A stretch of 64,000 nucleotides of DNA from a virus. This document shows positions 12 through 20,327 of the stretch, in pieces. Where the stretch lies: the IMG/VR virus record IMGVR_UViG_3300045988_112808. One strand, given 5' to 3'. Made by a program: the position numbers and the translations under genes. How positions within the stretch are numbered: position 1 is the first letter of the stretch; the number at the start of each line of letters is the position of its first letter. The notes beneath the pieces were generated by a model that was not told where the DNA came from, made no database searches, and saw nothing but the letters and a program-made list of their open reading frames with translations.

Positions 12-3000
12 ATGGCATCTGAGGGAAGTTACAAAGCTGCGTTAAACACTAACATGGATAAGTTTGTAGGTGATCTTGACCAGCAAATAGACATGCTTCT
101 TCCCCATTATTACAAGAAAGAGGTAGAAGATTATAATTTCGGTCAGAAGCTTTTTAAGGATACCGGTAATTTCTTATGGAATGACGTCCTTGGTAATGGT
201 ATGTCTTTTACCGTAGGAGCCATGATATCAGCGTACATGACCGGAGGACTTGGGGTTGGATCATTGGGCAATATAGGCGCTAAATTAGGTGGAAGAATCG
301 GAGCTAAGTTGGCAGCAAGGCAAGCTGCCAATAGGGGCATAGGAAACCTTAAAAGCGTGTTTAACGACTATGTAAGAAAAGGAGTTGCCACCGGAAGAAA
401 TGTAGGGGAGGCGGCTAAGACCATGACGTTGCTGGCTACCAGTGCCGGATTCGAGTCATCGGTTGAAGCAAATTCTTTTATGAAGCAATCCGAGTCTGAT
501 TTCAAGGATTATTATCGTAAGATTTATGGTCGTGATCCCAATGCAGAGGAAATGGCTGTTTTTCGTAATTCTAATGCTGATGTAGGTAGTGCTATATTTG
601 CCGCCAATATGGGTATAGTAGGATTATCCAACTGGCTTCTTTTTGGTAAGTATATAGGGTTAGGAGGCAAGGCTATACCTGGTTTGGAAAAGAAGCTCAA
701 CAAGCATTTATTTGGATTAGGGACGGAAGTTGCGAAGCCGGGAGAGATGGCTATTAAAATAACCAATCCCAATATAGGACAGAAGATAGCAGGCAATGTT
801 TTCAATATCATGAAAAGACCGGTATCTGAAGGATTATGGGAAGAAGGATCTCAAGGTGCTGTCCAGAATACGGCTGAGGAATATGTTAAGTCAAGATATG
901 ACAATGTTGCTATGAACGGGGCCGTTGATGTTCTTGATGCTATTTCTGAAGGATTTAAAAAACAATATACGTCTAAAGAAGGATGGACTGAAATAGGAAT
1001 CGGTGCTATTATCGGTTCTTTGTTTGGTATGAGGGAAGGCCTCTTTGGAGTGAAAGAGTATAGTAATAATCAGATATTGCTGGAAAGGCAAGTAAATGAA
1101 TATAACAAAGCATCTTCTAATCTTAATACGGCGGCTTTGAATACGTTGAAAAAGTCAATGAGTTTAGGGCCTCAAGTTCGTTCCGATGCTCAGTCTATGA
1201 CCGGCAAGGAGCTTGATGATGCAATGTTTGAAAAGATGTCGATTGACAACCAAATGGGAACCTTAGAGGATTCGGCTGAAAATTTCAGGCAGATGGTTGA
1301 TATGATGCCTATTTCGGAAATAGCCGAAGCCAACGGAATGTCTTTGGAAGAGGCAAAGAAATACAAGGATTCTATTATTGATAATTATAATAATCGTCTT
1401 TCGGATTTCAGATCTGCCCAGAGTTTTGCCGAAGATCTTATAGGTGATGATTCTAAGATTGAGTTTAGAAAATACGTGGCTCGTAATGCTTTTCTTGGTC
1501 TTCAATCGGAATCAAGAATGAAAGACATAGCTTCTGTCATAGAAACGCTTTCGGGTCAGCCTCGCGTGGCATATGCACTAAGTACGTTCTCCCGGCTGTC
1601 GGACAGGGCAAGGGAGCGGGCGATGGCTATCCGTGGCATACGGTCAAGGATAGAAGAGCTTGAATCCGAAATAGAAGATCTTGCTACTCGTCCTCGTAAC
1701 GTAGATGGAAAAGACCCACAAGCTGAATCCATACAACGAAAAACCAAAGAATTGGAAGATCTTAGAACCAATTATAACAATTCGTTGTCTGAGTTATCAA
1801 CGTTAATAGGAAAAGAGTTTTCGATAGAAGAGTTGGTAAGTAAAACCGAATCTGTTTTATCATCGCCTCTTTCTCCCATAAGTTCACAAGATGTAATAGA
1901 AGCCTATGATACGCTTGTGGCTTTTGATGATTATTTTAATGTAAAATCAAGACAGGAAAAGAAGTTTACAGCCAAAGACAAAGCCATGAGATCCTTGGTA
2001 AATGAATACCGAAGGAGTTTGATGGACTATAGGAATATGAATAACTTCTTGTCTAAGATGCTTGATAAAAGATTCTTAGCTGAGGAAAACAGGGGATTTT
2101 CAAAAGCGCTGTCTTCTCTATGGTCTACTCCTTATAAGGGGGATGATAAGGTTCCTGATTTTGCAGAGCCTAATAAAGTTGGTGAATATGACACTGATGA
2201 GGTAGTAGATCAAGCTGTGTCAGAAGGTAAGATTTCGGAAGACGAAGCTTGGACTATCAAGGCTTTTATGCATGCTCTTGATAAAGTAAGGGAAGATAGG
2301 ATGAAGGAAGCAGAAGACGATATAAAAGAGTCACCGCTTACGGAGTCTGTATCGGATGAAGATTATGAGGCTGCTATGGATAATCCTATTATGGTTCCGG
2401 TTGTAAGGCAGTCTATAATTGATAAACTATATACAGGTAATGCCGATCTTCTTACTGCGAGAGAAAAAGATGTGTATGATAAATACAAACAAGATTTTGA
2501 TGATTATGTATCGTCTTTAGGTGATAGTCCTGTTAATCTCATTAAATCATTATCTGAAAAGGCTGACAGGCTTACAAGTCCGAGATCAGTATATGAGGAA
2601 AATAAAGCTATTATTGATATGGCTAAGTCTAATTTGGAGCCAGATCAAAGAAAGGAGCTTGATGATGCTATTTCTTCGTATGTTGATATAATGAACAGAC
2701 GGGATAAAGGGGAGAAGGTTGACGAAGATAAGCTTGCCGATTCGGTATTTACCATAGAAGATCTTGGCCAAGTTGGAAACATCACAGATCTCCTTCCTTA
2801 TATCGAACAAAACAGGATTATTGATAAAGGTCGTATTTCCGAATCTACGTTAAGTAATTTTGGGGAGGATGATGCTAATATAGATTCTCTTGTAAATGAG
2901 TTAGACGAATCTGATAATACACCTGGAGCTAACATAGATAGTGCCCAGAATCCAGAGACGTTGATGGTAAGAAGAATCTCCAATGATGGCAATGAAAGGT

Positions 3001-6000
3001 ATGAAATTGCAGGTCTTAGAGCTGATAAATTTATATCTTCTATAAAATCATTGGTTCCTATTCAAATAAGCTCTGAAACGAACGCTAATGGTACTAAAAG
3101 GTATTCTCTTAACATAGGTGGAGAAACGGCTACTATAATTGAACTGCCTTATCATGCGAGATGGTCTATAGACAAAGAATCGGCTCGTGTTCTTAACCGT
3201 TACACAGACGTGTCTATTCAGGACGTGGGTAATTCCTATTCTTTGGTTTATAAGCGTCTTGATTCAGATGAGTTGGTTCCGTACAGAACAGGTGTCGGAT
3301 TTGGAGAGAATGAGGTAGATAAAATAGATCAGGAAGCATTATCTTCTTTGAAAAAAGGAGATAAGGTTAATCTCGAAATAGATGTAAATGATACCTATAA
3401 TCAGTCTCTTTTTGCCGAATACAATGATGCTGTTCAGTCCGGAGATAAAAAAAGAATAGAATCTGCTGAAAATAAACTGGTATCCAATATGGTTATCAAG
3501 GTCATGAGTGGAAACAGATTCGTTTCTGTTGTAAAAGCTGACACAGGGGGCATAGATGGTATAAGTAAGATAAGAAGAGCGGCTTTCAACAAGTGGAAGA
3601 AGGACGCCGGCCGGTCGGCTACCATCGGCGTCGGCACGCATGTTGTTGCCCAGACCCTTCCCGGAAGACCGGTGTTTAACATGAAGGTAAACGGTCAAGG
3701 ATATGGCCAGGTAGAAAATCTCCCCATTACCGAAAAAGGTGCTGAAAAAGTATCTGATGTCGGATATGTATTAAATGGCAAAGTCGTGCTTAAGAACGGA
3801 TCTAAATACACAGGCTTCCCATTTGCTTATTCTATATTAAATGACAAGGGGAATAATTACAAAAATGTAAGAGTTCCGGTAGTTGTCATCAAAGGTAAAA
3901 ACGGTCTTAATTATCTTTTCCCAGTTAGTCTACGTTCTGTAGAATCAGAGGAAGGGCAGAAATGGATGTCTTTTATAGATATGCTACTTGAATCTGGTGA
4001 TTCTGAATTGCTACAGATGGGTCAAGATGATATACAAGATCTTAATGCGTATCTAACCAAGTTAGGTCTTGATCCGGCTTCGTATCAAGTATCGTATTTG
4101 AATCCTATTTCAGGTCTTAGAAAAGCTCGTGAGGCTATAGAAGAATTATCTACAGTTCCTGATGTTGTTAAGTGGGTAGAAGATGGAAGTAGGAGCGTGA
4201 AAGACATTGTGACGTCTGAAGTAGAATCTGGAATAGATTTCGAAGGTGAGATGTTTGTTGCTCCTAAGATCAGGATCCAGTTTGGTAAATCATCTTCAAG
4301 ACCTAAATCACTTATAGAGGATGATCTTCCTTTCTCTGATGAGGGTAAGACCGTTACTTCTAAGGAAGACGTGGAAGTTTATGAAGAGGAAATGCCAGAG
4401 GAAGGGGCTGCCCGGGAGACTCAGCCGGCGCCATTAGCTCAGCCGGCTCCTGCGGCACAAGATGCGCAGTCTTTACCTGGCAAGAAGCGTACCTCCAGGA
4501 AAAACTTCTCTCTTATGTTAAACGAAATAGAATCTCATATAGAAAAAGAGGGATTGCCGCCTTATGCTAATATTTTTGATTTTATAGCAAGGAAGATTGT
4601 AGGAGGTGATTTGAGGTTTCTTCGTGAGAGAGGTAATCCTAAAAGCCTTAAGGAGGAAATGGGATTAGAACCTAAAGGAACAGTAGGTGATAAAATATCC
4701 ACTCCTTCCGGTAAAGGTGGTAAGACTTTAGAAGAATACGTTTCTTGGCTTCGTTCTCAAACAGATCAGGTAGTCGAGGATTATGTTGGGCCAAGATCTG
4801 ACGAACAAATTATATCAGAGTTGAAAAACTTTTTGAAATATATTAATTTTGTTCCAAGCAAGGCTTTGAATTATTCTCTTAGAGTCAATGGCATGGATAC
4901 CCTAAAAGAATATGGCACAAAAGAGGAAGTAGAAAAAATGGAATCTGATATCAATAGTTTGGTTTCTAAAGTTTTGCCTACGATGGACAACCAAACTATA
5001 GAAGATGTTTCTACTGTAATAAAATCAAACAACTTGCCCGCCATATGGGGGCCCGTGGAAAGCCTTGATATGACAAACGAGGAAAAAATAGAGTTTTTGA
5101 ATAACGTAGCAGATTTCCTTAGCGGCATACCAGAGTATGATGCTGTCGTGGAGTCTATAGAGTCAGAATCAGATAATATTTTAAATGATGGAAAAGAAGG
5201 AAGTGCAGAAGGCGGTGCAGTACGCACTGAGGAAGATGGCGATAAAAAGGGAGATGGAGAAGGCAAAGGACAATCCAGAACAAATGTCGAAGTTGAAAGA
5301 AATGTCGAATTACCTGGATCTGAAGAAGGAAGAGTAGATAACTATAGGAAGAACGGAGATAAGTTCTCTGACATTGCTGAAGTTACTTTATGGCTACTTA
5401 GAAGGGCTGCCGGCATAACCTCTATCCCGGAAGGAGAAGAGGCTTATGTAGAGGGAGATGAGGTTAATAGTATTATGACCGATATGGAATCAAGGTATGG
5501 TATAGACACCATCAATCACTCGCATACGACTAAGGCTATAAGGGATCTTAACGGCGTATCAGGTTATAAAGTAGAATACGGCTTAACCTTTTTGACATAC
5601 GATCCTTTTATTAGAATATCCAATCTAAGGAAAGGATCTAAGGCTGCGAAAGACGAACCTCGTATATCCGAAGAGTCGCTTACTCACATATCAAGGGTGA
5701 CAACCCCTTATTTCCTGTACGGCGGCGATGAAGCATATACATCTGTTCCGGCTAAGGTAGAACCTATACCGGAGAAGATAATGGGTCGTAATGGCATTAA
5801 ATTTGGTATGAGTGTAGTCGAGTTAACCAAATTAGGGTACAAAAAAGCTGGTGGAAACTGGATATATAAATTCTATATGAACTCAGGTGTGTATGATTTG
5901 TATAATATCAGTACCGGTGAAGCGTTTAGGGCAAAACCGGATCTTGGAGTTAAGATAAGTTCCAGTGCATTCATCCGCTCTTTATCTCAATCTGGTAGAA

Positions 6001-6113
6001 AAATACAAAATATGATGAGTAACATGAGTCAGGAAGAGATAGATAGGAATAAGAATCTTGTAGAAGGTTCTGATAATTCGGATTCGATAAATGAGTTAAA
6101 TAAAGAGTGTTGA
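12..6113 (+). CDS. giant hypothetical protein (2033 aa), possibly virion/tail-associated; frame is open to window start so true 5' end may lie upstream
   Basis: uninterrupted 6.1-kb ORF; Gly-rich N-terminal segment; no recognisable catalytic motif. Confidence 0.8.
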   Translation: MASEGSYKAALNTNMDKFVGDLDQQIDMLLPHYYKKEVEDYNFGQKLFKDTGNFLWNDVLGNGMSFTVGAMISAYMTGGLGVGSLGNIGAKLGGRIGAKLAARQAANRGIGNLKSVFNDYVRKGVATGRNVGEAAKTMTLLATSAGFESSVEANSFMKQSESDFKDYYRKIYGRDPNAEEMAVFRNSNADVGSAIFAANMGIVGLSNWLLFGKYIGLGGKAIPGLEKKLNKHLFGLGTEVAKPGEMAIKITNPNIGQKIAGNVFNIMKRPVSEGLWEEGSQGAVQNTAEEYVKSRYDNVAMNGAVDVLDAISEGFKKQYTSKEGWTEIGIGAIIGSLFGMREGLFGVKEYSNNQILLERQVNEYNKASSNLNTAALNTLKKSMSLGPQVRSDAQSMTGKELDDAMFEKMSIDNQMGTLEDSAENFRQMVDMMPISEIAEANGMSLEEAKKYKDSIIDNYNNRLSDFRSAQSFAEDLIGDDSKIEFRKYVARNAFLGLQSESRMKDIASVIETLSGQPRVAYALSTFSRLSDRARERAMAIRGIRSRIEELESEIEDLATRPRNVDGKDPQAESIQRKTKELEDLRTNYNNSLSELSTLIGKEFSIEELVSKTESVLSSPLSPISSQDVIEAYDTLVAFDDYFNVKSRQEKKFTAKDKAMRSLVNEYRRSLMDYRNMNNFLSKMLDKRFLAEENRGFSKALSSLWSTPYKGDDKVPDFAEPNKVGEYDTDEVVDQAVSEGKISEDEAWTIKAFMHALDKVREDRMKEAEDDIKESPLTESVSDEDYEAAMDNPIMVPVVRQSIIDKLYTGNADLLTAREKDVYDKYKQDFDDYVSSLGDSPVNLIKSLSEKADRLTSPRSVYEENKAIIDMAKSNLEPDQRKELDDAISSYVDIMNRRDKGEKVDEDKLADSVFTIEDLGQVGNITDLLPYIEQNRIIDKGRISESTLSNFGEDDANIDSLVNELDESDNTPGANIDSAQNPETLMVRRISNDGNERYEIAGLRADKFISSIKSLVPIQISSETNANGTKRYSLNIGGETATIIELPYHARWSIDKESARVLNRYTDVSIQDVGNSYSLVYKRLDSDELVPYRTGVGFGENEVDKIDQEALSSLKKGDKVNLEIDVNDTYNQSLFAEYNDAVQSGDKKRIESAENKLVSNMVIKVMSGNRFVSVVKADTGGIDGISKIRRAAFNKWKKDAGRSATIGVGTHVVAQTLPGRPVFNMKVNGQGYGQVENLPITEKGAEKVSDVGYVLNGKVVLKNGSKYTGFPFAYSILNDKGNNYKNVRVPVVVIKGKNGLNYLFPVSLRSVESEEGQKWMSFIDMLLESGDSELLQMGQDDIQDLNAYLTKLGLDPASYQVSYLNPISGLRKAREAIEELSTVPDVVKWVEDGSRSVKDIVTSEVESGIDFEGEMFVAPKIRIQFGKSSSRPKSLIEDDLPFSDEGKTVTSKEDVEVYEEEMPEEGAARETQPAPLAQPAPAAQDAQSLPGKKRTSRKNFSLMLNEIESHIEKEGLPPYANIFDFIARKIVGGDLRFLRERGNPKSLKEEMGLEPKGTVGDKISTPSGKGGKTLEEYVSWLRSQTDQVVEDYVGPRSDEQIISELKNFLKYINFVPSKALNYSLRVNGMDTLKEYGTKEEVEKMESDINSLVSKVLPTMDNQTIEDVSTVIKSNNLPAIWGPVESLDMTNEEKIEFLNNVADFLSGIPEYDAVVESIESESDNILNDGKEGSAEGGAVRTEEDGDKKGDGEGKGQSRTNVEVERNVELPGSEEGRVDNYRKNGDKFSDIAEVTLWLLRRAAGITSIPEGEEAYVEGDEVNSIMTDMESRYGIDTINHSHTTKAIRDLNGVSGYKVEYGLTFLTYDPFIRISNLRKGSKAAKDEPRISEESLTHISRVTTPYFLYGGDEAYTSVPAKVEPIPEKIMGRNGIKFGMSVVELTKLGYKKAGGNWIYKFYMNSGVYDLYNISTGEAFRAKPDLGVKISSSAFIRSLSQSGRKIQNMMSNMSQEEIDRNKNLVEGSDNSDSINELNKEC

Positions 6114-6115
6114 GT

Positions 6116-6646
6116 ATGAGAAGGAGATTTTTTAATGCTGCGGATAATTTCGTGGGAGGATGTTATAATAAGTTATCTAATGAGGATATAAAAAGGCTTG
6201 GAGGGAAAAGACCTTATGTATGTCAGTTTAATAAAATTCATGTACATATAGGACCTGTGTTAAAAGATCATGATTCTGATGTTAGTTACATAATGTTTAA
6301 TAGTTATTGGAATCAGGGTGGTTATGAATCTATGGTTTATAATCATAGCAATAATGGTATTTTTATATTAGGTGAAAACAAAATTGGTAACATAGAAGAT
6401 CATATACAAGATCTAACATATTGGTACGAATATGATCCAAGCATTAATGAAAATTATTGTTATTTTTATTATGAGGCTAATAACAGCGGAAATGCTATCA
6501 AGTTGAATGGTGAGTTTGGTGAGACCAGTACTGTTTTCAACATTCCCAGCTTGGAAGTCACCACTCTTCGTGATGGCAGTTTGAGTTTTCCGGAGATTTA
6601 TATAGAAGGAATTTGGGATCCGTCATTGTATAAGTCGGTTTTATAA
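6116..6646 (+). CDS. hypothetical protein, MRRRF-N-terminus family member 1 (ATG at 6116 preferred over GTG at 6107)
   Basis: ORF starts 2 nt after giant ORF stop; N-terminus MRRRF shared with 20542 and 21164 genes. Confidence 0.65.
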   Translation: MRRRFFNAADNFVGGCYNKLSNEDIKRLGGKRPYVCQFNKIHVHIGPVLKDHDSDVSYIMFNSYWNQGGYESMVYNHSNNGIFILGENKIGNIEDHIQDLTYWYEYDPSINENYCYFYYEANNSGNAIKLNGEFGETSTVFNIPSLEVTTLRDGSLSFPEIYIEGIWDPSLYKSVL

Positions 6647-6670
6647 TTAACTTTGCAAAAAAGTTAATTA
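6644..6670. promoter_or_regulatory. 10-bp AT-rich inverted repeat (TAATTAACTT/AAGTTAATTA) containing TAACTTTG -7-like promoter element
   Basis: perfect palindrome between 6107 and 6673 genes; TAnnTTTG at 6648-6655, 18 nt before ATG. Confidence 0.35.
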
Positions 6671-6672
6671 CA

Positions 6673-8928
6673 ATGGGTGTCAAATGTCAGATAGAAAAAA
6701 AGGAAAATGAAATAAAACGGGTTAAGGCTCCTAACGGGGAGCCTTCCGTTCTTTACGAAAGTGCCTTAAAATTATTAGGAAACAGCGAGCGGGCTCTTCA
6801 GGTATGGGCTAAGGCTTACACTCTTGGTTTTTTGTCGTATTACGGTCATTGGAATAACCCGGCTCCAGGGGAGATGTTTAACACCGATCCCAATGGCGAA
6901 CCTCTTTTAGAAGACGTGCTGTCGTATATGAAGCGTCAGGCTTATTTTTCCGATCCCTTAACGGCTCAGGATGTTAAGGATGTAAGAGATGTTATGATAT
7001 CCAATTCCATATATAGCATACGATCTCTTATTAATAGAGTTAGAGGCTCTTTTTATGTGGATGGTAATCTTATCCTAAATGAAGAAAATCTAAGGAGATC
7101 CGGCTTGTACAATGAGACAGAGATAAGTAGGATATTAGATAATCCTTCTGTACTTAATGAGGTCAGCTCTTTTATGAGGTTATTATTAGATTATTCCAAT
7201 AACGAACACGATCTCGGGAAAGAGTCTTACTTCACAACCGTAGAAAAACCATACGGTCCTGTTGTGTATAAAAATGGCGTCTTCAATAAATTAGGAAAGA
7301 GAGCATCATATAATCCGGCTGAAGTTTACGAGGTTATAAAAAATACAGTAGGAGGTATTAGTGTTGCTTCAGAGTTTGATGCTGCTTTCGAATCTTTATC
7401 TGATTCATATCCGGAGTTAGTTGAAAGATATCAGTCGGATAAGAGTTTTGCCTTGTCGCTGTTCAACGAATTTTCGAATATGAACATCGTTCCGGTTGTG
7501 GCTTTAGAAGATAATAATATCGTAGAAGGGAAGAGACGGTCATTGTCAAAGTTGCAAGATTATGCTTATTATAGCCCTATTAATGCTGAGTCATTACGGG
7601 CTCGTATATCAGCCTTTCTAAATAGGGTTAATGCTGATACAGAAGAAGACCTTAGAAGTATGATATGGGACGTAGAAGAGGCTTGTGTAGGTCTTGGTAT
7701 AGATATCGTAGGGGCGTCTAAAGCATACGACGGAACAGAAGAATCGCTGAATAAAATTGATAGCTTGATGTTGGATCTCGATATTTATGTAGCAAGGCAC
7801 AACGATGACACTTATGCTCCTACCTTAGCTTCTGCTATTGATAATGTTCTTGGAGATAGCAGGGATCGCCGTGTTATGTTTCTGCCAGAGTATATGGATA
7901 ATATGAATATCGTTTATATGGAATCTGACATAGATCCGGTATCGGCATTTGAAAATCATTCTCTGCTTTATCTTGGTGGAAACCTATATCATAAGGTAGA
8001 AAGAGATAATTTAGGTGATTTGTACGATATAGCTGCCGAGCTTGCCAAGCGGAGTCTAACTTATTTCCCACCTGGTATCTATCCTGAATATTGTTTTAAG
8101 GATGGTGTTTTAGATAAGCGCCGCGTGGAAAACGTAGATAGTAAGGTCCTTGCTGATTCTATTAAAAAATACATCCTGTCTTATACCGATTCTCAGAATA
8201 CGGAAGAGATGAATGCTACCAGATTGGCGTTCGGTCATCTTGTTATTCCTGAAAGTCCGTATGTTAATGAAGAACGGGAGTTTAGCCGATACATAAACAG
8301 AAAGCAGGACAAAGAGAATCCTTTACTCTTATTCGATTTATACCAATCTTATCTTGAAAATAAGCTTCATAATACGGAAGTGTATGAAGGGGCATACAAG
8401 TATCTTGATTTCAAACCGGATCATTTGCTGGGTCTTACCGTTTCAGATCCGGATACGTTAAAACAAATTGAACTATCTTTGGCAGGTAATGATCGTGAGC
8501 AGTTATTTGAGTATAGCATGAGCAGCACCGATCCTTCTTTTACAGATCTGTTCTATTTGGATTATTATGATATGTTATATGCCGGTTCTGATTTCTATCA
8601 CGATCTTTTTACAAAACATCCTAATCTCTTAAATGAGGTTCGGGGTCATAACATAACTAATCAGGATGATAATGTTATCGTAGAAGGTTTGTATGATAAT
8701 TTTATCAGAATAGGAAACATAGTGTTCACTAAAGTCGGCGAAAGTAGTTCCGGCTCTATCTACCAAAATCTGACAGGAACCGAATCGGAGGTGAAATACG
8801 ATTCTACTCAGAAGGCTAAGACGGTAGAAACCGATTACGCTCCATACCAAAACAGATCTGGCTTGACGCAAGATATGATCGTAAGCAAGTCTGAATTGGA
8901 TGATCTTAACAAATTAGAATGCAAATAA
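6673..8928 (+). CDS. hypothetical protein (751 aa)
   Basis: long ORF, no recognised motif. Confidence 0.75.
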   Translation: MGVKCQIEKKENEIKRVKAPNGEPSVLYESALKLLGNSERALQVWAKAYTLGFLSYYGHWNNPAPGEMFNTDPNGEPLLEDVLSYMKRQAYFSDPLTAQDVKDVRDVMISNSIYSIRSLINRVRGSFYVDGNLILNEENLRRSGLYNETEISRILDNPSVLNEVSSFMRLLLDYSNNEHDLGKESYFTTVEKPYGPVVYKNGVFNKLGKRASYNPAEVYEVIKNTVGGISVASEFDAAFESLSDSYPELVERYQSDKSFALSLFNEFSNMNIVPVVALEDNNIVEGKRRSLSKLQDYAYYSPINAESLRARISAFLNRVNADTEEDLRSMIWDVEEACVGLGIDIVGASKAYDGTEESLNKIDSLMLDLDIYVARHNDDTYAPTLASAIDNVLGDSRDRRVMFLPEYMDNMNIVYMESDIDPVSAFENHSLLYLGGNLYHKVERDNLGDLYDIAAELAKRSLTYFPPGIYPEYCFKDGVLDKRRVENVDSKVLADSIKKYILSYTDSQNTEEMNATRLAFGHLVIPESPYVNEEREFSRYINRKQDKENPLLLFDLYQSYLENKLHNTEVYEGAYKYLDFKPDHLLGLTVSDPDTLKQIELSLAGNDREQLFEYSMSSTDPSFTDLFYLDYYDMLYAGSDFYHDLFTKHPNLLNEVRGHNITNQDDNVIVEGLYDNFIRIGNIVFTKVGESSSGSIYQNLTGTESEVKYDSTQKAKTVETDYAPYQNRSGLTQDMIVSKSELDDLNKLECK

Positions 8929-9068
8929 TTTTTGTACACATATATAGTTTTTTTATAATTACAATTTGGGAAGTGGGGCTTGTGAAAGTCTCACTTTTCT
9001 TATATATGCACGTATATCAATAACATACAAGAAAAGTTAGATTTTCATTGTTTATGAATTATTTTTGT

Positions 9069-9076
9069 TAAGTTTG
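9069..9076 (+). promoter_or_regulatory. TAAGTTTG -7-like promoter element (Bacteroidota type)
   Basis: perfect TAnnTTTG in intergenic region upstream of 9151 gene. Confidence 0.3.
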
Positions 9077-11244: not shown

Positions 11245-11261
11245 TTGAAAAAGTATTCTAT

Positions 11262-11489: not shown

Positions 11490-11701
11490 CCGTAGAAGAA
11501 TTGGCTAATAAAAGATACGGTGGCGAATTTGTTTTTATGCTTGGTCATTTGGAAGGTGTAACAAGATTCGTTTTTGAATGTTTCGATCCCAGACCTGATC
11601 ACGAAGGTAAAAATACTTATATGGTTTCCTATTTTGATAAGCGCATCCGTAGAAGAGATGTAGTAGATGTGCCATGTTATATGAGTGTTTTAGCAAAATA
11701 A
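11486..11701 (+). CDS. hypothetical protein
   Basis: ORF track. Confidence 0.6.
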   Translation: MTVEELANKRYGGEFVFMLGHLEGVTRFVFECFDPRPDHEGKNTYMVSYFDKRIRRRDVVDVPCYMSVLAK

Positions 11702-11721
11702 ATTAAAATATTGTAAATATC

Positions 11722-12243
11722 ATGGTTAGAATCGCATATTTCGGAACCGATGGCTGCCCCGGTCATCACGTTATTCCAATACGAGGTAAATTCACAGAAG
11801 AGGATATTAAGGTAATAGAATCTGTAGATTGTGATGATTTCTATAAGGTGTTTGACGTTATGCGTTTTAAGATAGCTGAGTTTAAAGGATGGACGATATT
11901 GGGAATCCCGGCAAGCTTAGACGATCATAGACCTGGGAGCAAAACCGTTATCTTCATAGAGGGTAAAGCTAACGAAGCTGATTTTATGGAAGTCATACAA
12001 GAGTATTCTTTTCTTAAAAATAAGGTAAAGAAACTTATCGAATTGTATCATGATGGAGAATGGCTTGCGACTGGTAAATTGAATCAAGATCCGCCTACTA
12101 ACAAGGAGCGGTTTCAATTTATGTTAGACAAGGATGATAAACTGGTGGTGGTTCCTGGAACGTGGCATGGTAGGTTCAAGAAAGAATGGCCTACTGAAGA
12201 AGAAAAGAAGCATATTGGTAAAAACGGTATTTTAAATTATTGA
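11722..12243 (+). CDS. hypothetical protein
   Basis: ORF track. Confidence 0.65.
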   Translation: MVRIAYFGTDGCPGHHVIPIRGKFTEEDIKVIESVDCDDFYKVFDVMRFKIAEFKGWTILGIPASLDDHRPGSKTVIFIEGKANEADFMEVIQEYSFLKNKVKKLIELYHDGEWLATGKLNQDPPTNKERFQFMLDKDDKLVVVPGTWHGRFKKEWPTEEEKKHIGKNGILNY

Positions 12244-12246
12244 TTT

Positions 12247-12552
12247 ATGTGTGATAAGGAAATTGTTGTATGCGCAGCTATATGGGTTCAAGATCACAAG
12301 AACAAGCCTCACGGTCCAGTAAACATACCATCCGGAACCGTATTTTGTGGATTGAGACATTGTTCCATAATATCTCAACTTGCGGCATACGGTATAGCCC
12401 ATAAAAACCGCAGTGTTCAAGGATTTTTGACGAGCAAGAACCGGTTTTTAACAAGAGAGGAAGCATCTGAACTTGTTAAGAGCAATAATCAGGAAATGGT
12501 AGTAGATAGGAGTGCTATTAGAGAACAATTGTATTCAGAAGATCTATATTAA
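12247..12552 (+). CDS. hypothetical protein
   Basis: ORF track. Confidence 0.6.
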   Translation: MCDKEIVVCAAIWVQDHKNKPHGPVNIPSGTVFCGLRHCSIISQLAAYGIAHKNRSVQGFLTSKNRFLTREEASELVKSNNQEMVVDRSAIREQLYSEDLY

Positions 12553-12570
12553 CTAAAAAAACAAAACAAC

Positions 12571-12924
12571 ATGGGGTTTAAAATCAAAAAGTCAATCACT
12601 TATGATATGATGGACGACAGTCGGGTAGAGTATGAATTTGATAATACCAATGATTTAAATCATATCATATTTAAAGGTAATTGTAGAGAACCTTTTTCAT
12701 TTAGCAGAGTACTTGTTGAAGAATTAATTAAGACATTTGAAACCATACGGGATAGATACTTTGATAATTATGAACTTAAGGTCTATCTTTACAATTGCAT
12801 AATTCAACTGAGCGTAAATCCAAAGGATCCCAGTGAATCCTTTTTTGGCGTATATGATAGAGATGAGATGAAATTGATATACGGAATAAAGATCAGTATT
12901 CTGAAAGGAATGTTTGGCATATGA
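12571..12924 (+). CDS. hypothetical protein
   Basis: ORF track; ATGATGA overlap with next gene. Confidence 0.6.
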   Translation: MGFKIKKSITYDMMDDSRVEYEFDNTNDLNHIIFKGNCREPFSFSRVLVEELIKTFETIRDRYFDNYELKVYLYNCIIQLSVNPKDPSESFFGVYDRDEMKLIYGIKISILKGMFGI

Positions 12925-13238
12925 TGACTAAACAAGATATACAAGCAGCGGCATCGTATATTTTCCGAAGCAGTTTTGTCTCGGAGGACCAGGCAAGGAA
13001 AGCAATGGTAAGAGCCGGCAATAACGCTACCAAGATCCTCGTCAAGACCTTTAGAGGCAAGTTGTTCAAGAAAGCTTTTGAAAGAGCCCGTAGAGGAAAG
13101 GATATCAGTTCTTTTGAAAAACAGGAAAAAGAAAGTGGTTTCAATTTTCTACATAATCCTAATAATGGTCGTATGCAAAGCGGTCATATTATAATAGATG
13201 GAATTGGTCTGTTTAAACAAATAATTCATGAAAGGTAA
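12921..13238 (+). CDS. hypothetical protein
   Basis: ORF track. Confidence 0.6.
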   Translation: MMTKQDIQAAASYIFRSSFVSEDQARKAMVRAGNNATKILVKTFRGKLFKKAFERARRGKDISSFEKQEKESGFNFLHNPNNGRMQSGHIIIDGIGLFKQIIHER

Positions 13239-13398
13239 AAAAGTTGATATTCGTTTAGGCAGAGGTCTGGCGAATCAGATTAAGATAAACAAAACCATCC
13301 CAGTGTCTCATAAACCAAAAGAAGAACGTCGAATGATGTTTATTTGTGGTGATGATATTGCTTCTCTTATAAAGCGGTTTGAAAACGAATCAAAGTAA
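13228..13398 (+). CDS. small hypothetical protein (56 aa, MKGKKVDIRLGRG...)
   Basis: ATG ORF below track cutoff overlapping 3' end of previous gene by 11 nt. Confidence 0.3.
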   Translation: MKGKKVDIRLGRGLANQIKINKTIPVSHKPKEERRMMFICGDDIASLIKRFENESK

Positions 13399-13411
13399 TA
13401 TAAAGTAGGAC

Positions 13412-13771
13412 ATGTATCTTGTCCGATTTTTTTTATATATTTGTGGCATGTCAAGAGGTTATTATTGGATACCACAAACAGATGAAACGTTAAATGGCAG
13501 AAGCTATTACGTGGCTAAGATAGTAGGAGATATCACGTTTGATACTAAACGAAAAAGAATCGTATTTCAAGCTGATAGGTATTTCCCTGTAGGATCTGTT
13601 TTCCATTTTACGCACAATTGCTTCAACTATATCATAACTTGCCGACTTCGCAAGCCGGGGCTTTGGTTTGAAGCCAGGAGAGAGGATTCAGGCCCTATTT
13701 GCCCTGAAGATATTGAGCGCTTTGAATCGGGAAGGTTTATACACCGAGATGGGTACATGCATTACATATAA
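13412..13771 (+). CDS. hypothetical protein (alternative start ATG 13448 just after TATATTTG motif at 13436-13443)
   Basis: ORF track. Confidence 0.6.
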   Translation: MYLVRFFLYICGMSRGYYWIPQTDETLNGRSYYVAKIVGDITFDTKRKRIVFQADRYFPVGSVFHFTHNCFNYIITCRLRKPGLWFEARREDSGPICPEDIERFESGRFIHRDGYMHYI

Positions 13772-13823
13772 GCTGAACTTGACGATTTTTCGTAAGATTA
13801 TAATTTTTTTTCATATTATTTTT

Positions 13824-13862
13824 AAGCCATCAGACTGAGAAGTTAGGTGGCTTTATTTTTTA
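13824..13862 (+). terminator. possible intrinsic terminator
   Basis: AAGCCA...TGGCTT stem followed by TATTTTTT. Confidence 0.4.
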
Positions 13863-13882
13863 TGATATGCTTGATTTTTAAC

Positions 13883-13890
13883 TACCTTTG
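13883..13890 (+). promoter_or_regulatory. TACCTTTG -7-like promoter element for giant ORF 2
   Basis: perfect TAnnTTTG 23 nt before ATG 13914. Confidence 0.35.
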
Positions 13891-13913
13891 TCTCATAACA
13901 AAAATGTTTTACT

Positions 13914-16900
13914 ATGACATCAGCGTGTATTATTAAAAGAGATAATAAAAAGAAAGTTGTTTCTGTCTCTACCATATCAGGGGACAGGTCTATGTTATTT
14001 GATAAAATAGCATCTATTCCTCTTATGGAGAACAGGGAACGGGCCACTACTGTTTTTAAAACCGTATTTTCTAATAAGTTCTTAAAGGCTTTTGGCGACT
14101 GGAGAAAGAGAGTGCCTATCAACAAACCGGCTTATAATAAGGTAAAATCCAACATCGATCTTATTCCGGAAGCCTATAGAGAAAGGGTGTTGGATAAGGC
14201 TTCTAAGATGAGTAATCCTGTTCTTGTGTCAAAATCAGATGTACCTTATGAAATCCAAGAATCGGGCTTTGGATTCTACAGCCAAAATCTGGGTGATAAT
14301 ATTATGTTGGTGGATGCTATGGTCCCGTCAAGTATTTCCGTACCGGAAGGACCGGGAATAGACGCCGGGCAGTATCTACAAGATGCTATATCTTCGGACT
14401 TCACTCCCGTATCTATGGTACAGGATAAGGGTGTTAATTATATGGTTATAAAAGATGGTCTTAAGATATTTAGCCCAGAGGAGTTACCAGAAACAGATTC
14501 TAATCCTGTGGGTGTAACGTATCAGACCGGAGAGCCTCGTTTGTTTTTCATGAACGATCGTAGTCAATTATTTGAAGATTACGGAGAAGCTCTTCGCTCT
14601 GGCGGGAATGATATTAGAATAGGGTTCTTATCAGGCACCGTTCAAGAATCTACCGTGGATGGCGTGGAAGACATTACTTACAAAGCTGGAAAGTATGTTC
14701 TTAATAATCCCAAGTCTTTTATACCGGTCATGACCGCGTCTGCTTCTACTTCTTTATCAACAAAAGGTGGTATAATTAACTACCTTATAAAGAAAGGTCT
14801 TTTGTCCGGATCTAAGATATTCGATCCTGAAACAAGAAGCTATTATCTTACAGGAGAAGGACATACAGGACAAATTAGACTTTTCAATTCAGCCTTATCC
14901 TACACCGAGCTCCGTAATCATTTTGGTTCCGATGTTTCCATGAACGACCAAGGTATGATAACCATAAGCTCGTTGGATAATAGTAAGGTAACTATGAGGC
15001 TCGCCACCGGAGGAACGGAAAGGGTTAGCAAAGAGCAGATAAAGAACGATCTTAAGTCAGGAAGATACAATGAATTGGACGCCAAGTACGATCATTTTGA
15101 TGCGCTTGTAGTTTCATTCATATTAGAAGACAACGATCTTTATGCTGATACTAAAGCTAAGATCGTATCAGATTATAGCAGGCAGGAACGTGATCAACGA
15201 AATTCTATTGTCGAGATACTGAAAACTCTTGGCGTTAGTGTCATAGGTATGACCGACTATATAGAGAAGTACCAAACCAAATACGGGCATGAACCTTCTG
15301 CTAAGGCATTGGCGGATATTGCCAATAACGTAATAGCAGTTGGTGAAGATGCTACTTTATCTGATTTAGTAGAAGAAACAGCCCACTTCCTTGTAGAGGC
15401 ATACAGAGATCAGAATGCCGTTGAGGCTGTTCTGCAAGATGTAGAAGGTACGGAAGAGTGGAACCAGTATGCAGGTCAGTATTATAATACATACGGTAAG
15501 GTATATGAAGGAGCTGAGCTTGATAATGCTGTTAGGAGAGAAATTCTTGGAAAGATCCTCGCCATGGAGATGCAGACCGGCACAGCACAGGCGCCGGTAG
15601 AGCCCACCTCCTTCCTGGGGCGCGTCCGGCAGCTTCTCTCTGGAATCGTAAGCTGGCTTAAATCAGCTTTATCAACCCAAAGACAAGATTTGAATAACGT
15701 TATTAAAAACATTCGTGATCTTGCCATTACTGACATAGATAAAGGATTTGACACTTCTCTGTTAAAGGATAATGACTTTACATTATACTCCCTTTCTTCT
15801 ATGAACAAGAACAAGTTTCTTGAGTCTAAGATCAGATCACTAAGAAAAACATTAAGAGACTTACGTCAGATAAGCTCTGATAGGGCTGTAACTACGTCTA
15901 TGACCCTTGCTCAGCTTAAGACCATAGAAGATAAGATAAATAAGGTAGAGACCGAAATAGACAAGAATGAGATGGCGGCTGCCATGAACAGCATGATCTC
16001 CACAGCCGAAGCTCAGGTTAGATACTTAAGTAATGTGGTGAACACCATCCTTCATGGTGATACCAAAGACGGTAAGCTTCACTTCAATACCAATGATCGA
16101 AAGAACGTAGATATTATCAACAATCAGGTTCTTCCGATCATGAACGATCTTCGAGGATATATCCGTAACAGAAGTACCGAATTTGATGAACGTGAAAAGC
16201 AGGATTATACAAATAGGATCAATACCGTCATTGCCGACATCAATGGTATTCAGTCTGATATTAAATCAGTACAAGACCTTGATGAAAGTACGTTGCTTGA
16301 TAAGTTAATGAACGAACTTCATGTGCCGGCAGATAAGGTAAAGAGAGTAAAAGAATTTTTTGACAAGGTTCAACACGATGTTTCTTGGATAAGTAGGTGG
16401 TTTGGTATATTAGAGCATTCTTCCAGCCCGTTCAATAACGCTCTTGGAGCTATGATTGCCAAAGACAATTACAATGCGATGGTGAATGCCCAGCCCGCCA
16501 TATCCGACTTCCTGGCATATGCTAAAAAGCATGGTTTTAACAAATCTGAATTTGAAAAACTGCTTCAGAAAGTAGACGGCAAAACTTCCAATTACCTTCG
16601 TAGTGCTCTTGATATGGCTAAATACGATCGTAATAAGAAGCTGGCGCAGATGCGAGCGTTTGCGACTGCCATGAACATAGAGATATCAGAAGAAGAAATT
16701 GGTGATGTGGTTGACAATAACCGTAATTACGTATTTAAAAGAGAAGTAGTTGACAAGGACGGAAATACGGTTACTGAAAACGCTAAATTTAAACCATCGT
16801 CCGATAGGGTTAATACCGATATTTTTACCATCGAGCAGGAAAAGATCTATACGGAGCAGATGGAAAAGTGGGATGCTGAAAATTCAGAATTGGAATTTAG

Positions 16901-19900
16901 TGAAAGTTATGCCACAAGAATGGAATCCATATACAAAAAGGCTGAAGAAGAATTAGGACATCCGGTTTCTCAAACAACCAAAGAATACCTTAATGCCTTA
17001 TCCCGGCAAAAACGGATATTGAGGCAGCCTTTTATTGATAGCGGTGGTAATTTTGATGAGGTTGCCTACTATAAGAGTAGTAACTACGAAGAAGAAGGAC
17101 TGCTTCGTAAACAACGTAAGGAGGCAGCTTCGGAATACATATATGTAGGAACCAGGAGAGTGGAAAAAACCGGCGACCAACTTAAGATGGCCAAAGAAAT
17201 ACAAGCCATAAATGAAGTTTGGAGAAAAGAATCAAATAATGCCACTAATGCCGTATCAGAATCGTTTTTGCAAAAATTAAGAACGATTCAGAGCGAGTCT
17301 GGAGGAGAAGCTGCGCTGAAGACGCTTATGTTGGGGGGTCACCTGTCATTCAACGATCGGTTTTGGAATGACGTAGAATCGGAACAGTCGGCGCGTACCG
17401 AATCAAATAACAAGGCTTCGTATCTTAAAATGGCGCATGATATCATTAGTTCTACGACAAGTGATAGAGATGCGACTGACGTGGACTCGATTGTAAAAGA
17501 TATAGAAAAAAATAAGGCCATTATCAAGGAAATAATCGGAAACAATCGCGATGTGGCTGATATCGGAGAAATCAATGAAGCGACATTTACCTCATCTGAA
17601 AGAGATGCTTTTAGGGCCGCATCTGAAGCTATTGAAGCCGATTACGCTATTTTGATAGATTATGCTAAGATGGTGGGTCTTGAAGATATTGATAAGTACC
17701 TTACTAAAAGCAGTAAGGCTGAAAACGAAGTAAATCAGTCTTATTTAAGTGCTCTTGCTGACTCTAAGGAAATTGAATGGCAGTTTGCACAGCGTCATAC
17801 TACTGCCAAAAAAGCCAAAAGGATTCAGGCTCTTAGAGATAAGTTATTCATGGCTCAAGATAACAGGTATATGTTTACCGTCTCTGAAACCAACTACTTG
17901 TCAGAAAAATTGGGAATAGATAAAAAGCTAGATCGTAGAGATTTTAGGAATGCGGTTAGAGCTAAGATGTCTGACATATTTGGACACGATAACGGAGTAG
18001 CTGAAGTGAACGATATCGTTAATGAATTTGCCAGGAGCCAGGTCTTTTCGTACTATAAACGCATGGCGCCTACCGGATATGCGGCTATGATCGACAAAAT
18101 CGGTCGAGGTGAGATAGATGTGGCGCAGATGGTTAAGGACGTACAAAACGGTACATCCACCCAAGATTATGGCATGGACATATCGTACCTGTCTTTCGAT
18201 CCTGCAAGGGCATGGGTGGCTGAATCTGAAGCCGAAAATAGCGGCCGTAATCCTGATTATGTAAAAGATCATGGGTATGGTCATCGCATGCCTAAGAAAA
18301 GCCTGTATCGTGATGAATCATATTTCAACGACTTCGGCATTAAGTATGATGCTGATGGTAATGAGGTTGCTACTAAAAACATAGAGCAGTGGAATATGAT
18401 TCAAAAACTCAAGGAAATAAAAAGACAATCCCTTGATCTATACAAAGAGCAGAGCCCGAACCTGTATGCTATTCCACAGATATCCAAACAAGATATAGAA
18501 CGTATAGAAGGGTTAGGTATCAGCCTTAAAAGTACGGTCAGGAACTTCGTATCCGACTTATGTCTTGACCGCGTAGATGACTCCCTGTATGGTAAAACAC
18601 GTCAGGGTGAGGTATATGATCCGGAAGATAGGGTTCGGTCCATACCTAAATACTACATATATGAATTAGAGAACCAAGATGATGTATCTCACGATTTTGG
18701 CTACTCTTATTCGATGCTTATGATGCAGTCATCGTTATATAACGAAAAGCAGAAGTCTATAGAGCTTGCCCAAGGACTGGAGCAGATGTTACTGAATAAA
18801 CAATTTGAGGGTGGTAAGAAGGCTGAAGCAACCCAAGCATATCAGATGTTCAGGGACTTCTTCAACGATCATTATTATGGCATTAGGATGAACACCAAAA
18901 AACTTACGGTGAACATCGGAGGATATACGGTAGACCTTACAAGAATTATGATGGCTGTTGAAAGGTTTATGTCGGTCATGAACTTGGCACTGTCTCCGTT
19001 TGTGGCAGCTACCGGCGCCCTTACCGGCCATATCAACCTCATCATGGAATCTGCCGTAGGACAGTATATAAGCAAAGACTCCCTTAAATACGCATCGGCT
19101 GAGTTTTCACGTCTTGCGCCATCTTGTATAGCAGAAACCGGAGACATAGATAGGAAAAGCAAATTATATGTCATAGGTGAGAGAATGGGGATATTCAATA
19201 TCCGAAATCGTATGTATGGTGCCGGATACAATAGAGCGGCCAGGACCTTAATGCGTTCGCCTATGTATGCTTTTATGGAAATCCTGAACTACCCTCTTGA
19301 TCCGCAGGTTATGATTGCTACTATGGACAATGTTCGTTATTACAAAGGCCGGTTCTACACGTTCCAAGATTTCAAGATGGAAAAAGAACGTAATAAAGAA
19401 CAGAGTACCATAAAAAGAGAATGGAATGCATTAAAAGATCGTACTTTATGGAGTATGGTAGACGTCGTGGATGGGAAGGTGGTTGTAAAGCCAGGATCGG
19501 GTGTTACTGTTGAGGAAGTTGAAACCCAGATGGCTATAACCAGAAATCAAGTTCGTAGCTTGTCGCAGATATGTAACGGATCTTTGAATGAAGAAAACCG
19601 AACTGCCGCATCGCGCAACTGGATAGCCAGGTTCATGACCGCCCACCGAGGATGGTTGGTGCTGGCGGCTCAACGTCTGTGGAAAAGACGTGGCTTCAAT
19701 TTCCAGACAATGCAAGAAGAGGAAGGACTGTCAATTACGTTAAAGAATATGATAGCCAAAACATTTAGCTTAGCTTCCGAGTCTGGTATGAAAAACATCA
19801 TAGATGCCTGGAACGAAAATAAAGACAATATGAATGAGGTAGAGAAAACCAATATAAAACGTCTCAGTGTCTATGCCGGCACGTTCCTTATCATGCAAGC

Positions 19901-20327
19901 CGTATCCATGCTTCTTGCCGGATGGCGTGATGATGATGAAAACGAAGAAAGTTGGCTTACTCAATTTGGATCCTATGTCGGATTCAGAACCATAAACGAA
20001 ATAGCTTCACAGATGCCGTTTATTATGGAGCTTAACGTTGTAGATATCATTAACGACCCGTTTGTCATGGGGCGGAAGTTGAAGGATCTTACTGATCTTA
20101 GGAATTACTCACTTGATAAAGTAACATCCGGCACATACAAAGGAGAGTTTAAGTTATTTAGGCAACTCGCCAAACAGACGTTTATCAAACAATGGTATAA
20201 TATCAAGACGCCGGAAGACGTAGCGCGCGCCTATAATTGGTGGCAGCAGACAAACAACAAGTCAATGATGTTCTTCATCGGCGCTACTCCTGATTCGGAA
20301 GGAGACGATGACGTTAGTTACAAATAG
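13914..20327 (+). CDS. giant hypothetical protein (2137 aa), possibly virion-packaged/ejected protein
   Basis: uninterrupted 6.4-kb ORF ending TAG; C-terminal hydrophobic segments; no DxDGD-type RNAP motif found. Confidence 0.85.
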   Translation: MTSACIIKRDNKKKVVSVSTISGDRSMLFDKIASIPLMENRERATTVFKTVFSNKFLKAFGDWRKRVPINKPAYNKVKSNIDLIPEAYRERVLDKASKMSNPVLVSKSDVPYEIQESGFGFYSQNLGDNIMLVDAMVPSSISVPEGPGIDAGQYLQDAISSDFTPVSMVQDKGVNYMVIKDGLKIFSPEELPETDSNPVGVTYQTGEPRLFFMNDRSQLFEDYGEALRSGGNDIRIGFLSGTVQESTVDGVEDITYKAGKYVLNNPKSFIPVMTASASTSLSTKGGIINYLIKKGLLSGSKIFDPETRSYYLTGEGHTGQIRLFNSALSYTELRNHFGSDVSMNDQGMITISSLDNSKVTMRLATGGTERVSKEQIKNDLKSGRYNELDAKYDHFDALVVSFILEDNDLYADTKAKIVSDYSRQERDQRNSIVEILKTLGVSVIGMTDYIEKYQTKYGHEPSAKALADIANNVIAVGEDATLSDLVEETAHFLVEAYRDQNAVEAVLQDVEGTEEWNQYAGQYYNTYGKVYEGAELDNAVRREILGKILAMEMQTGTAQAPVEPTSFLGRVRQLLSGIVSWLKSALSTQRQDLNNVIKNIRDLAITDIDKGFDTSLLKDNDFTLYSLSSMNKNKFLESKIRSLRKTLRDLRQISSDRAVTTSMTLAQLKTIEDKINKVETEIDKNEMAAAMNSMISTAEAQVRYLSNVVNTILHGDTKDGKLHFNTNDRKNVDIINNQVLPIMNDLRGYIRNRSTEFDEREKQDYTNRINTVIADINGIQSDIKSVQDLDESTLLDKLMNELHVPADKVKRVKEFFDKVQHDVSWISRWFGILEHSSSPFNNALGAMIAKDNYNAMVNAQPAISDFLAYAKKHGFNKSEFEKLLQKVDGKTSNYLRSALDMAKYDRNKKLAQMRAFATAMNIEISEEEIGDVVDNNRNYVFKREVVDKDGNTVTENAKFKPSSDRVNTDIFTIEQEKIYTEQMEKWDAENSELEFSESYATRMESIYKKAEEELGHPVSQTTKEYLNALSRQKRILRQPFIDSGGNFDEVAYYKSSNYEEEGLLRKQRKEAASEYIYVGTRRVEKTGDQLKMAKEIQAINEVWRKESNNATNAVSESFLQKLRTIQSESGGEAALKTLMLGGHLSFNDRFWNDVESEQSARTESNNKASYLKMAHDIISSTTSDRDATDVDSIVKDIEKNKAIIKEIIGNNRDVADIGEINEATFTSSERDAFRAASEAIEADYAILIDYAKMVGLEDIDKYLTKSSKAENEVNQSYLSALADSKEIEWQFAQRHTTAKKAKRIQALRDKLFMAQDNRYMFTVSETNYLSEKLGIDKKLDRRDFRNAVRAKMSDIFGHDNGVAEVNDIVNEFARSQVFSYYKRMAPTGYAAMIDKIGRGEIDVAQMVKDVQNGTSTQDYGMDISYLSFDPARAWVAESEAENSGRNPDYVKDHGYGHRMPKKSLYRDESYFNDFGIKYDADGNEVATKNIEQWNMIQKLKEIKRQSLDLYKEQSPNLYAIPQISKQDIERIEGLGISLKSTVRNFVSDLCLDRVDDSLYGKTRQGEVYDPEDRVRSIPKYYIYELENQDDVSHDFGYSYSMLMMQSSLYNEKQKSIELAQGLEQMLLNKQFEGGKKAEATQAYQMFRDFFNDHYYGIRMNTKKLTVNIGGYTVDLTRIMMAVERFMSVMNLALSPFVAATGALTGHINLIMESAVGQYISKDSLKYASAEFSRLAPSCIAETGDIDRKSKLYVIGERMGIFNIRNRMYGAGYNRAARTLMRSPMYAFMEILNYPLDPQVMIATMDNVRYYKGRFYTFQDFKMEKERNKEQSTIKREWNALKDRTLWSMVDVVDGKVVVKPGSGVTVEEVETQMAITRNQVRSLSQICNGSLNEENRTAASRNWIARFMTAHRGWLVLAAQRLWKRRGFNFQTMQEEEGLSITLKNMIAKTFSLASESGMKNIIDAWNENKDNMNEVEKTNIKRLSVYAGTFLIMQAVSMLLAGWRDDDENEESWLTQFGSYVGFRTINEIASQMPFIMELNVVDIINDPFVMGRKLKDLTDLRNYSLDKVTSGTYKGEFKLFRQLAKQTFIKQWYNIKTPEDVARAYNWWQQTNNKSMMFFIGATPDSEGDDDVSYK

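Follow-up and report, generated by a model that had tools for sequence, protein, structure and literature searches.

Two giant proteins of an epsilon-group crAss-like phage as probable virion cargo proteins rather than RNA polymerases

Among the phages of the human gut, crassviruses are the most numerous, and much of their virion consists of giant packaged proteins that are poorly understood. In phage crAss001, gp47, gp49 and gp50 were found in virions by proteomics and placed in the cargo zone of the capsid; these cargo proteins must unfold to get through the tail (PMC10172136). In phi14:2, the genes follow the order g067, g066 (the RNA polymerase, RNAP, with DFDID at 1361-1365) and g065, and the products of g065-g067 are annotated in GenBank as virion proteins by tandem mass spectrometry (MS/MS). 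Here we analysed a 64,000-nucleotide stretch of viral DNA (IMG/VR record IMGVR_UViG_3300045988_112808, hereafter the window) encoding two giant open reading frames (ORFs), ORF1 (listed as 12..6113, 2033 aa) and ORF2 (13914..20327, 2137 aa). Coordinates are those of the window, on the plus strand unless stated otherwise. An earlier note, made from the sequence alone, had found no recognisable domain in either ORF and proposed ejection proteins, tape-measure-like proteins or virion RNAPs. We consider it likely that ORF1 and ORF2 are giant internal cargo or ejection proteins of the crassvirus virion and that neither is an RNA polymerase.

A near-identical genome carrying 'structural protein' labels has already been published, and the protein classes were known. 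Our comparisons add the assignment of the giants to the gp47/gp67 and gp49/gp65 families, an altered zincin motif, a putative polyvalent chassis with a common leader, and a neighbouring 'RNAP' without a detectable catalytic core.

Relationship of the giants to crassvirus cargo proteins

The ORF2 DNA was 95% identical to that of crAssE-Sib, a 151-kb epsilon-group crAss-like phage from the human gut (PMC11054128; GenBank OR575929, where it is spelt 'csAssE-Sib'), and the giant proteins were 94-97% identical, indicating that the window phage is a close relative. By this measure it belongs to the epsilon-group crAss-like (Crassvirales) gut phages; the earlier note had rightly named crAss-like phages as an example. 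In crAssE-Sib, the counterparts of both giants carry the published label 'structural protein'.

The two ORFs lie on the same strand 7.8 kb apart, as first described, and both are real because more than 2000 open codons would not arise by chance at ~5-6% stop codons and 36-43% GC. However, ORF1 is not a complete 2033-aa gene. It is cut by the window edge (1..6113), because bases 1-11 hold no in-frame stop and the 'Met1' of the window aligns to Met181 of the crAssE-Sib homologue WOZ57301, a 2208-aa protein 94% identical to ORF1. The full-length protein would therefore have ~2208 aa, with ~180 N-terminal residues encoded outside the window.

Upstream (5') of the ORF1 orthologue, crAssE-Sib has a gene for a crass-type muzzle protein, one for a tail lysozyme and three for proteins of 339, 946 and 993 aa. 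The equivalent order in the marine epsilon-group phage phi17:2 is gp043 (muzzle), gp042, gp041, gp040, gp039 (1957 aa), gp038 (517 aa), gp037 and gp036 (1914 aa). Pairwise HMMER comparisons matched the 946-aa protein to gp041, the 993-aa protein to gp040, ORF1 to gp039, the 751-aa product of the gene between the giants to gp038 (weakly) and ORF2 to gp036. The order muzzle, tail lysozyme, mid-size proteins, ORF1, middle gene, ORF2 was kept in comparison with phi17:2, phi14:2 and crAss001, and it places ORF1 and ORF2 at the distal end of the crassvirus tail/cargo module. Full-length orthologues of ORF2 and ORF1, with 22-26% identity and the same gene order, are found in phi4:1 (gp035 and gp038; gp036 and gp039 in phi17:2). 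The phi4:1 orthologues gp035, gp037 and gp038 are noted 'experimental MS/MS proteomics' in GenBank, gp035 and gp038 having been detected experimentally in virions. The giant-protein families are virion proteins because these phi4:1 orthologues were detected by MS/MS. Unlike the window phage, phi4:1 and phi17:2 infect marine hosts, and their giants are parted by gp037/gp036-type genes only, without an anti-repressor/small-gene insert.

Searches of both giants against Pfam, NCBIfam and PDB sequences, with single sequences and family profiles, returned nothing above noise, and to this extent the absence of recognisable domains was confirmed; PHROGs and profile comparisons nevertheless place both proteins in phage families. 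The N-terminal 466 aa of ORF1 matched phrog_32390 (function unknown). The phi17:2 protein gp039 bridges ORF1 to phi14:2 g067 (two blocks, E 4e-12), IAS gp058 (E 3e-12) and cr128_1 gp051 (E 2e-11). Alignment of the ORF1 family to g067/gp058/gp051 with hhalign gave a probability of 99.2 and an E-value of 1.3e-19 over 353 columns, pairing full-length aa 139-518 with phi14:2 g067 66-398, and the ORF1 hidden Markov model (HMM) matched crAss001 gp47 in two colinear blocks (E 4e-11). On this homology, and on MS/MS of an orthologue, ORF1 appears to correspond to phi14:2 gp67 and crAss001 gp47. It shares with gp67, gp47 and IAS gp058 the position just after the tail/cargo genes, the size (1800-2400 aa), an N-terminal domain of ~380 aa with Gly-rich hydrophobic segments, and the status of virion protein by MS/MS. 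In contrast, the similarity detected outside the N-terminal domain is confined to a short C-terminal stretch linked through phi17:2, and the strand-rich central region and two low-complexity linkers of ORF1 had no detected counterpart in these proteins.

ORF2 matched phrog_37651, 'virion structural protein', at E 8e-77. Its C-terminal third was found by tblastn in Steigviridae and Suoliviridae genes located directly downstream of the RNAP gene and annotated 'RNA-polymerase subunit'. A profile of 32 ORF2 sequences aligned to phi14:2 g065, IAS gp057 and cr128_1 gp052 with a probability of 99.96 (hhalign, E 3.3e-39) across 594 columns, ORF2 1455-2098 pairing with phi14:2 g065 733-1406. The ORF2 HMM also matched crAss001 gp49 (E 1.5e-69, two colinear blocks), cr52_1 gp35 (E 2e-105) and phi14:2 g065 (E 1e-20). 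Together with MS/MS of an orthologue, these matches identify ORF2 as the counterpart of phi14:2 gp65 and crAss001 gp49. ORF2 has in common with gp65, gp49 and cr52_1 gp35 the N-terminal leader, a colinear zincin-derived region, the 640-aa C-terminal domain with its second hydrophobic helix, and the identity as a virion protein. It exceeds them in length by ~700-800 aa, the conserved blocks being set apart by additional helical sequence, and it differs in its position: the gp65-type gene of other crassviruses follows the RNAP gene directly, whereas ~5 kb of small genes intervene before ORF2. The suggestion that the giants are virion-packaged ejection proteins is thus supported by homology and synteny, since orthologues of both are virion proteins.

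Domain organisation of ORF2 and ORF1

ORF2 starts with a leader (aa 1-70, 13914..14123) that was recognised in the family alignment by the pattern M-x-x-x-C ... S-x-L-F-D-K-I-A ... F-G-D-W. Across the family, this leader spans ~65 aa and reads M-x(1-3)-C-[IV]-[IV]-K-R ... S-x-L-[FY]-D-K-I-A ... F-G-D-W, that is, Met, 1-3 residues, Cys, a basic hairpin and S-x-L-F...F-G-D-W, and it stands at the start of all ORF2 relatives. It is common to ORF2, the 751-aa protein (window 6673-6880) and cr52_1 gp35, with weaker matches at the N-terminus of the phi14:2 RNAP (g066) and in crAss001 gp49. The shared leader could be a packaging or ejection signal.

An exhaustive search with ORF2 aa 1-620 retrieved at least 352 clusters (50% identity) at E<=1e-3. 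The conserved core of these proteins (1.85-5.0 thousand aa) begins 60 to 3051 residues from the N-terminus. In relatives, the region after or inside the leader holds enzyme modules, in some cases inserted between its two halves: Methyltransf_23, a nicotianamine-synthase-like methyltransferase, LPD23 with a DUF6782/SprT-like peptidase, ART-PolyVal, Kinase-PolyVal and Radical_SAM were each seen at least once. The equivalent slot is short in ORF2 (aa ~71-260, 14124..14693), and a Pfam search recognised no effector module in the protein. This arrangement resembles the polyvalent-protein design described by Iyer et al. 2017 (PMC5512222), whose members are predicted to be packaged and injected (PMC5512222). 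The ORF2 relatives share with polyvalent proteins the ART-PolyVal, Kinase-PolyVal, LPD23, zincin-like peptidase and methyltransferase modules, and the combination of several effector domains with a zincin-like metallopeptidase hub was seen in relatives on the same chassis, whereas ORF2 of the window comprises the chassis only. We therefore describe ORF2 as the putative constant chassis of a polyvalent-protein family. Since ADP-ribosyltransferases, kinases and methyltransferases are mounted on this widespread chassis, injected anti-defence enzymes could usefully be sought in the ORF2 family.

A zincin-like domain has been described for phi14:2 gp65 (bioRxiv 10.1101/2020.03.07.982082). The family alignment and hhalign placed the corresponding motif of ORF2 at EETAHFLVE (aa 487-495, 15372..15398). 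Within the consensus EE[TV][AS]HF[LI][VI][ED], residues E487, E488, H491 and F492 were invariant down to 21% identity, and position 495 was always Glu or Asp. Comparison of this sub-region with the gp65-type alignment (hhalign probability 90.7, E 1.2e-6) set H491 at the first His of phi14:2 HEIMH, F492 at the catalytic Glu and E495 at the second His. An alternative pairing of EExxH with HExxH, which would have restored a canonical zincin, was dropped, as the hhalign/MAFFT register puts Phe at the catalytic Glu. ORF2 thus has HFxxE in place of canonical HExxH, as in gut Steigviridae and in contrast to the canonical HEIMH of phi14:2; the same loss was found in crAss001-like gut phages, and Pfam gave no zincin match in ORF2. 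Retention of the motif as HFxxE makes canonical peptidase chemistry doubtful, and the region is best described as a probable relic or altered site.

The conserved C-terminal domain of ORF2 (aa 1455-2098, ~640 aa, 18276..20207), defined by the 594 hhalign columns, contains two hydrophobic helices (nt 18966-19022 and 19863-19919). The second had a counterpart in every homologue checked, and the first had one in IAS gp057 and cr52_1 gp35. GenBank lists the crAssE-Sib orthologue of ORF2 as two overlapping coding sequences of 282 and 1885 aa (OR575929 103085-109487). ORF2 is a single ORF of ~2140 aa in the window and in most database relatives; the split is therefore probably a frameshift or assembly error in that record.

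The conserved N-terminal domain of ORF1 (full-length aa 139-518, 1..1028), delimited by the hhalign alignment, includes three Gly-rich hydrophobic segments (nt 186-266, 591-647 and 978-1028) whose Gly/Ser/Ala pattern was invariant down to 25% identity. The N-terminal parts of phi14:2 g067 and cr128 gp051 also had hydrophobic windows, and the ORF1 segments are candidate membrane-inserting helices. Past this domain, the remaining ~1700 residues aligned with phi17:2 gp039 only, with aa 1030-1423 conserved between the two, and one short C-terminal block joins gp039 to phi14:2 g067. The C-terminal 1094 residues (2829..6110) comprise three parts, a strand-rich one (~nt 2964-3941), a helical one and a C-terminal domain; a Pro/Ala/Gln linker separates the first from the second, and an acidic Gly-rich linker the second from the third. 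The earlier note had recommended Foldseek searches with AlphaFold models. These were carried out for ORF1 aa 940-2033, for which the AlphaFold (AF2) model was poor (mean predicted local distance difference test score 53, predicted template modelling score 0.30) and gave no meaningful match in the PDB (best E 0.36). The ORF1 family profile also had no match among PDB sequences.

The middle gene and the role of the giants

The gene between the giants (6673..8928) occupies the position of the crassvirus virion RNAP and encodes the 751-aa protein, which consists of the leader and a mostly helical body. Babkin et al. called its 752-aa orthologue a DNA-dependent RNAP (HHpred 95%, 46% coverage), whereas Yutin et al. 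reported no DxDxD-containing block in the epsilon group (PMC7886860). In our comparisons the resemblance of the 751-aa protein to crAss RNAP proteins was confined to their N-terminal half, which is non-catalytic. To look for the catalytic half, a profile was built from the DPBB2/catalytic region (GYRIPTE...GSDFDIDKM) of three Steigviridae RNAPs and run against six-frame translations of the window, crAssE-Sib and the 48-kb phi17:2 locus. For crAssE-Sib, three loci covering bases 1-129487 were searched, and the window spans the homologous remainder. The profile found nothing in any of these sequences (best E 0.28), and neither profile nor motif scan revealed a DFDxD motif in a double-psi beta-barrel with GYRIPTE context. 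Likewise, we found no overall fold similarity to 6VR4 or QDE-1, the mark of a crAss-type virion RNAP. The published 'RNAP' label was therefore not reproduced as far as the catalytic core is concerned, the likeness being to the N-terminal half alone.

A scan for DxDxD returned three matches, two of which were examined and judged to be chance. DFDKD in phi17:2 gp039 is not conserved, ORF1 having NSNAD at the aligned place. DLDVDKM in crAssE-Sib WOZ57256, which lies outside the window, occurs in the last repeat unit only; at this place the remaining units have different sequences, and its HMM score was negative. WOZ57256 is a 580-aa 'hypothetical protein' of the head/tail module with seven ~70-aa repeats carrying C-D-F-P-D...C-Y-x-T. 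The nearest RNAP-like signature named in the earlier note, YDADGNE, does exist in ORF2 (aa 1478-1484, 18345..18365), but it lies in a variable, indel-rich loop that is unconserved in 32 family members and falls in a gap of the gp65-type alignment, and it is not a polymerase site.

We interpret the middle gene as related to the N-terminal, non-catalytic half of the virion RNAP, with the catalytic half seemingly missing. This would explain the partial published HHpred match, and it reconciles the two published statements on the epsilon group, that the transcription gene block is absent and that a virion RNAP is present, because the block is there, with a middle gene that seems reduced to an N-terminal remnant. 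Since no catalytic RNAP was detected, the lineage most likely uses host RNAP for early transcription.

Two further observations concern this gene. The 751-aa protein was ~71% identical to its crAssE-Sib orthologue, compared with 94-97% for the flanking giants, and the gene appears to be a local hotspot of divergence or recombination. In addition, the C-terminal end of phi17:2 gp039 (aa 1873-1952) weakly resembled aa 94-173 of the 751-aa protein (E 5e-4), a part that phi17:2 gp038 does not have. It seems that either the boundary between the ORF1 orthologue and the middle gene has moved or the two genes were formerly joined, as in crassviruses that encode one polyprotein.

Of the competing explanations, the one that fares best is that the giants are transcription accessory subunits ('RNAP-associated proteins') acting here on host RNA polymerase. 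Homologues are indeed annotated 'RNA polymerase subunit/associated protein' and adjoin the RNAP gene in other crassviruses, but that annotation is based on gene neighbourhood and not on an assay. Moreover, two of the three giants are kept without a detectable polymerase catalytic domain, which argues for a core function independent of the polymerase and separate from transcription and points to DNA or protein delivery. Delivery, and not transcription, is likewise what the hydrophobic helices in matching regions of homologues and the effector modules of relatives would suggest, and we regard an accessory role as unlikely.

Still less probable is a virion RNAP so divergent that its catalytic site is no longer recognisable, formed by one giant alone or by a giant and the 751-aa protein. 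The genes sit at the 'transcription block' position of crassviruses, the 751-aa protein is similar to the N-terminal half of crAss RNAPs and was published as an RNAP, these enzymes evolve very fast (PMC7886860), and much of ORF1 is without an assigned fold. The virion RNAP proposed in the earlier note nonetheless found no support: there was no DxDxD/DPBB signature, YDADGNE was unconserved and the catalytic profile was without a match, and we consider this explanation very unlikely.

An external role, as tail fibres or a tape-measure-like length ruler, is the most improbable: great length, a position in the late/structural operon after the tail genes and the Gly-rich hydrophobic segments of ORF1, a kind that also occurs in tape-measure proteins, would suit it, but membership of such a family found no support, and the crassvirus tail is short and closed by the muzzle protein encoded upstream. 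In crAss001, the homologues were not visible in the ordered density of the tail and were placed in the cargo zone of the capsid (PMC10172136). Pfam and PHROGs gave no tail-fibre or tape-measure match, the kind of homology that the earlier note had singled out as telling against its proposal.

Several points weigh against the assignment of ORF1 and ORF2 as cargo or ejection proteins. The evidence for presence in virions comes from the orthologues in phi4:1, phi14:2 and crAss001, and packaging and ejection are predicted for this phage and its gut relatives. The link between ORF1 and gp47 is limited to the N-terminal 380-420 residues, ~1700 residues of ORF1 and ~900 of ORF2 have no assigned fold, and the AF2 model of the C-terminal half of ORF1 was poor. 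Membrane insertion is predicted from hydropathy windows alone, which lie barely above the 1.4 threshold, and the hydropathy scan called no window in phi17:2 gp039 or IAS gp058. Local E-values were computed with a nominal database size of 1000. On the polymerase side, Babkin et al. obtained an HHpred probability of 95% for the 752-aa protein against phi14:2 gp66, and, with a profile drawn from three Steigviridae only and crAss RNAPs being very divergent, a divergent catalytic domain could escape detection.

Assuming that the giants are cargo proteins, ORF1 and ORF2 would be packed inside the capsid and, during infection, would pass through the portal and tail before the DNA does, threaded in a partly unfolded state. 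The N-terminal Gly-rich helices of ORF1 and the two C-terminal helices of ORF2 would then insert into the Bacteroidota envelope and help to build or extend a DNA conduit. ORF2-type proteins of relatives may also deliver anti-host enzymes, the slot being short in this phage. In function, such proteins would be analogous to T7 gp14/15/16, P22 gp7/16/20 and N4 gp50, which are stored in the capsid, leave before the DNA and span the envelope; the N4 virion RNAP gp50 is a single giant protein with regions for injection, enzyme activity and encapsidation (PMC10172136, PMC5512222). The analogy is functional only: no sequence or fold similarity to the T7, P22 and N4 proteins was found, and no transglycosylase or polymerase domain was found in ORF1 or ORF2.

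A broader and more tentative proposal, which we think possible though rather doubtful, is that epsilon crassviruses represent a natural virion-RNAP 'knock-out', in which the giants and a gene stump (the leader and N-terminal half) were kept and the catalytic half was lost. The giants of all Crassvirales would then form an ejection apparatus and effector-delivery chassis and not be transcription factors, and the leader would act as a signal for cargo packaging or ejection.

Small genes, hairpins and the insert between the giants

Each giant is followed by a small gene whose product starts with MRRRF, as noted before. The first (ATG at 6116, 6116..6646) encodes a 176-aa protein starting MRRRFF that is not homologous to the product of the crAssE-Sib gene in the same slot (192 aa), and the slot right after ORF1 looks like an exchangeable cassette. 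The second (ATG at 20542, 20542..21159) encodes a 205-aa protein starting MRRRFQ, 90% identical in crAssE-Sib. Family searches found none for either protein, and paralogy was rejected, as the two proteins are unrelated to each other.

The earlier note had also placed a hairpin or palindrome at the end of each giant. This holds for ORF2, which is followed by an inverted repeat with 15-nt arms (20465-20498), a 4-nt loop and a T-rich run; the whole element (20465..20506) is the likely terminator of the ORF2 transcript. Nothing comparable stands directly after ORF1. The nearest elements downstream are an AT-rich palindrome (6641-6673) after the 176-aa gene and a strong terminator-like hairpin of 14 pairs (8968..8999) after the 751-aa gene, and a second strong terminator-like hairpin lies at 11154-11184.

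The insert between the cargo genes (8929-13913) carries an Ant-type anti-repressor (9636-10202, PHROG E 1e-40) and ~12 small genes. It is missing from phi17:2, and in the window it is ~2.7 kb shorter than in crAssE-Sib. ARAGORN detected no tRNA genes in the whole window. At ~21900-22000 the GC skew reverses and coding moves to the other strand, which ends the plus-strand late/cargo block, and the minus-strand block that follows corresponds to replication genes in the collinear crAssE-Sib genome.

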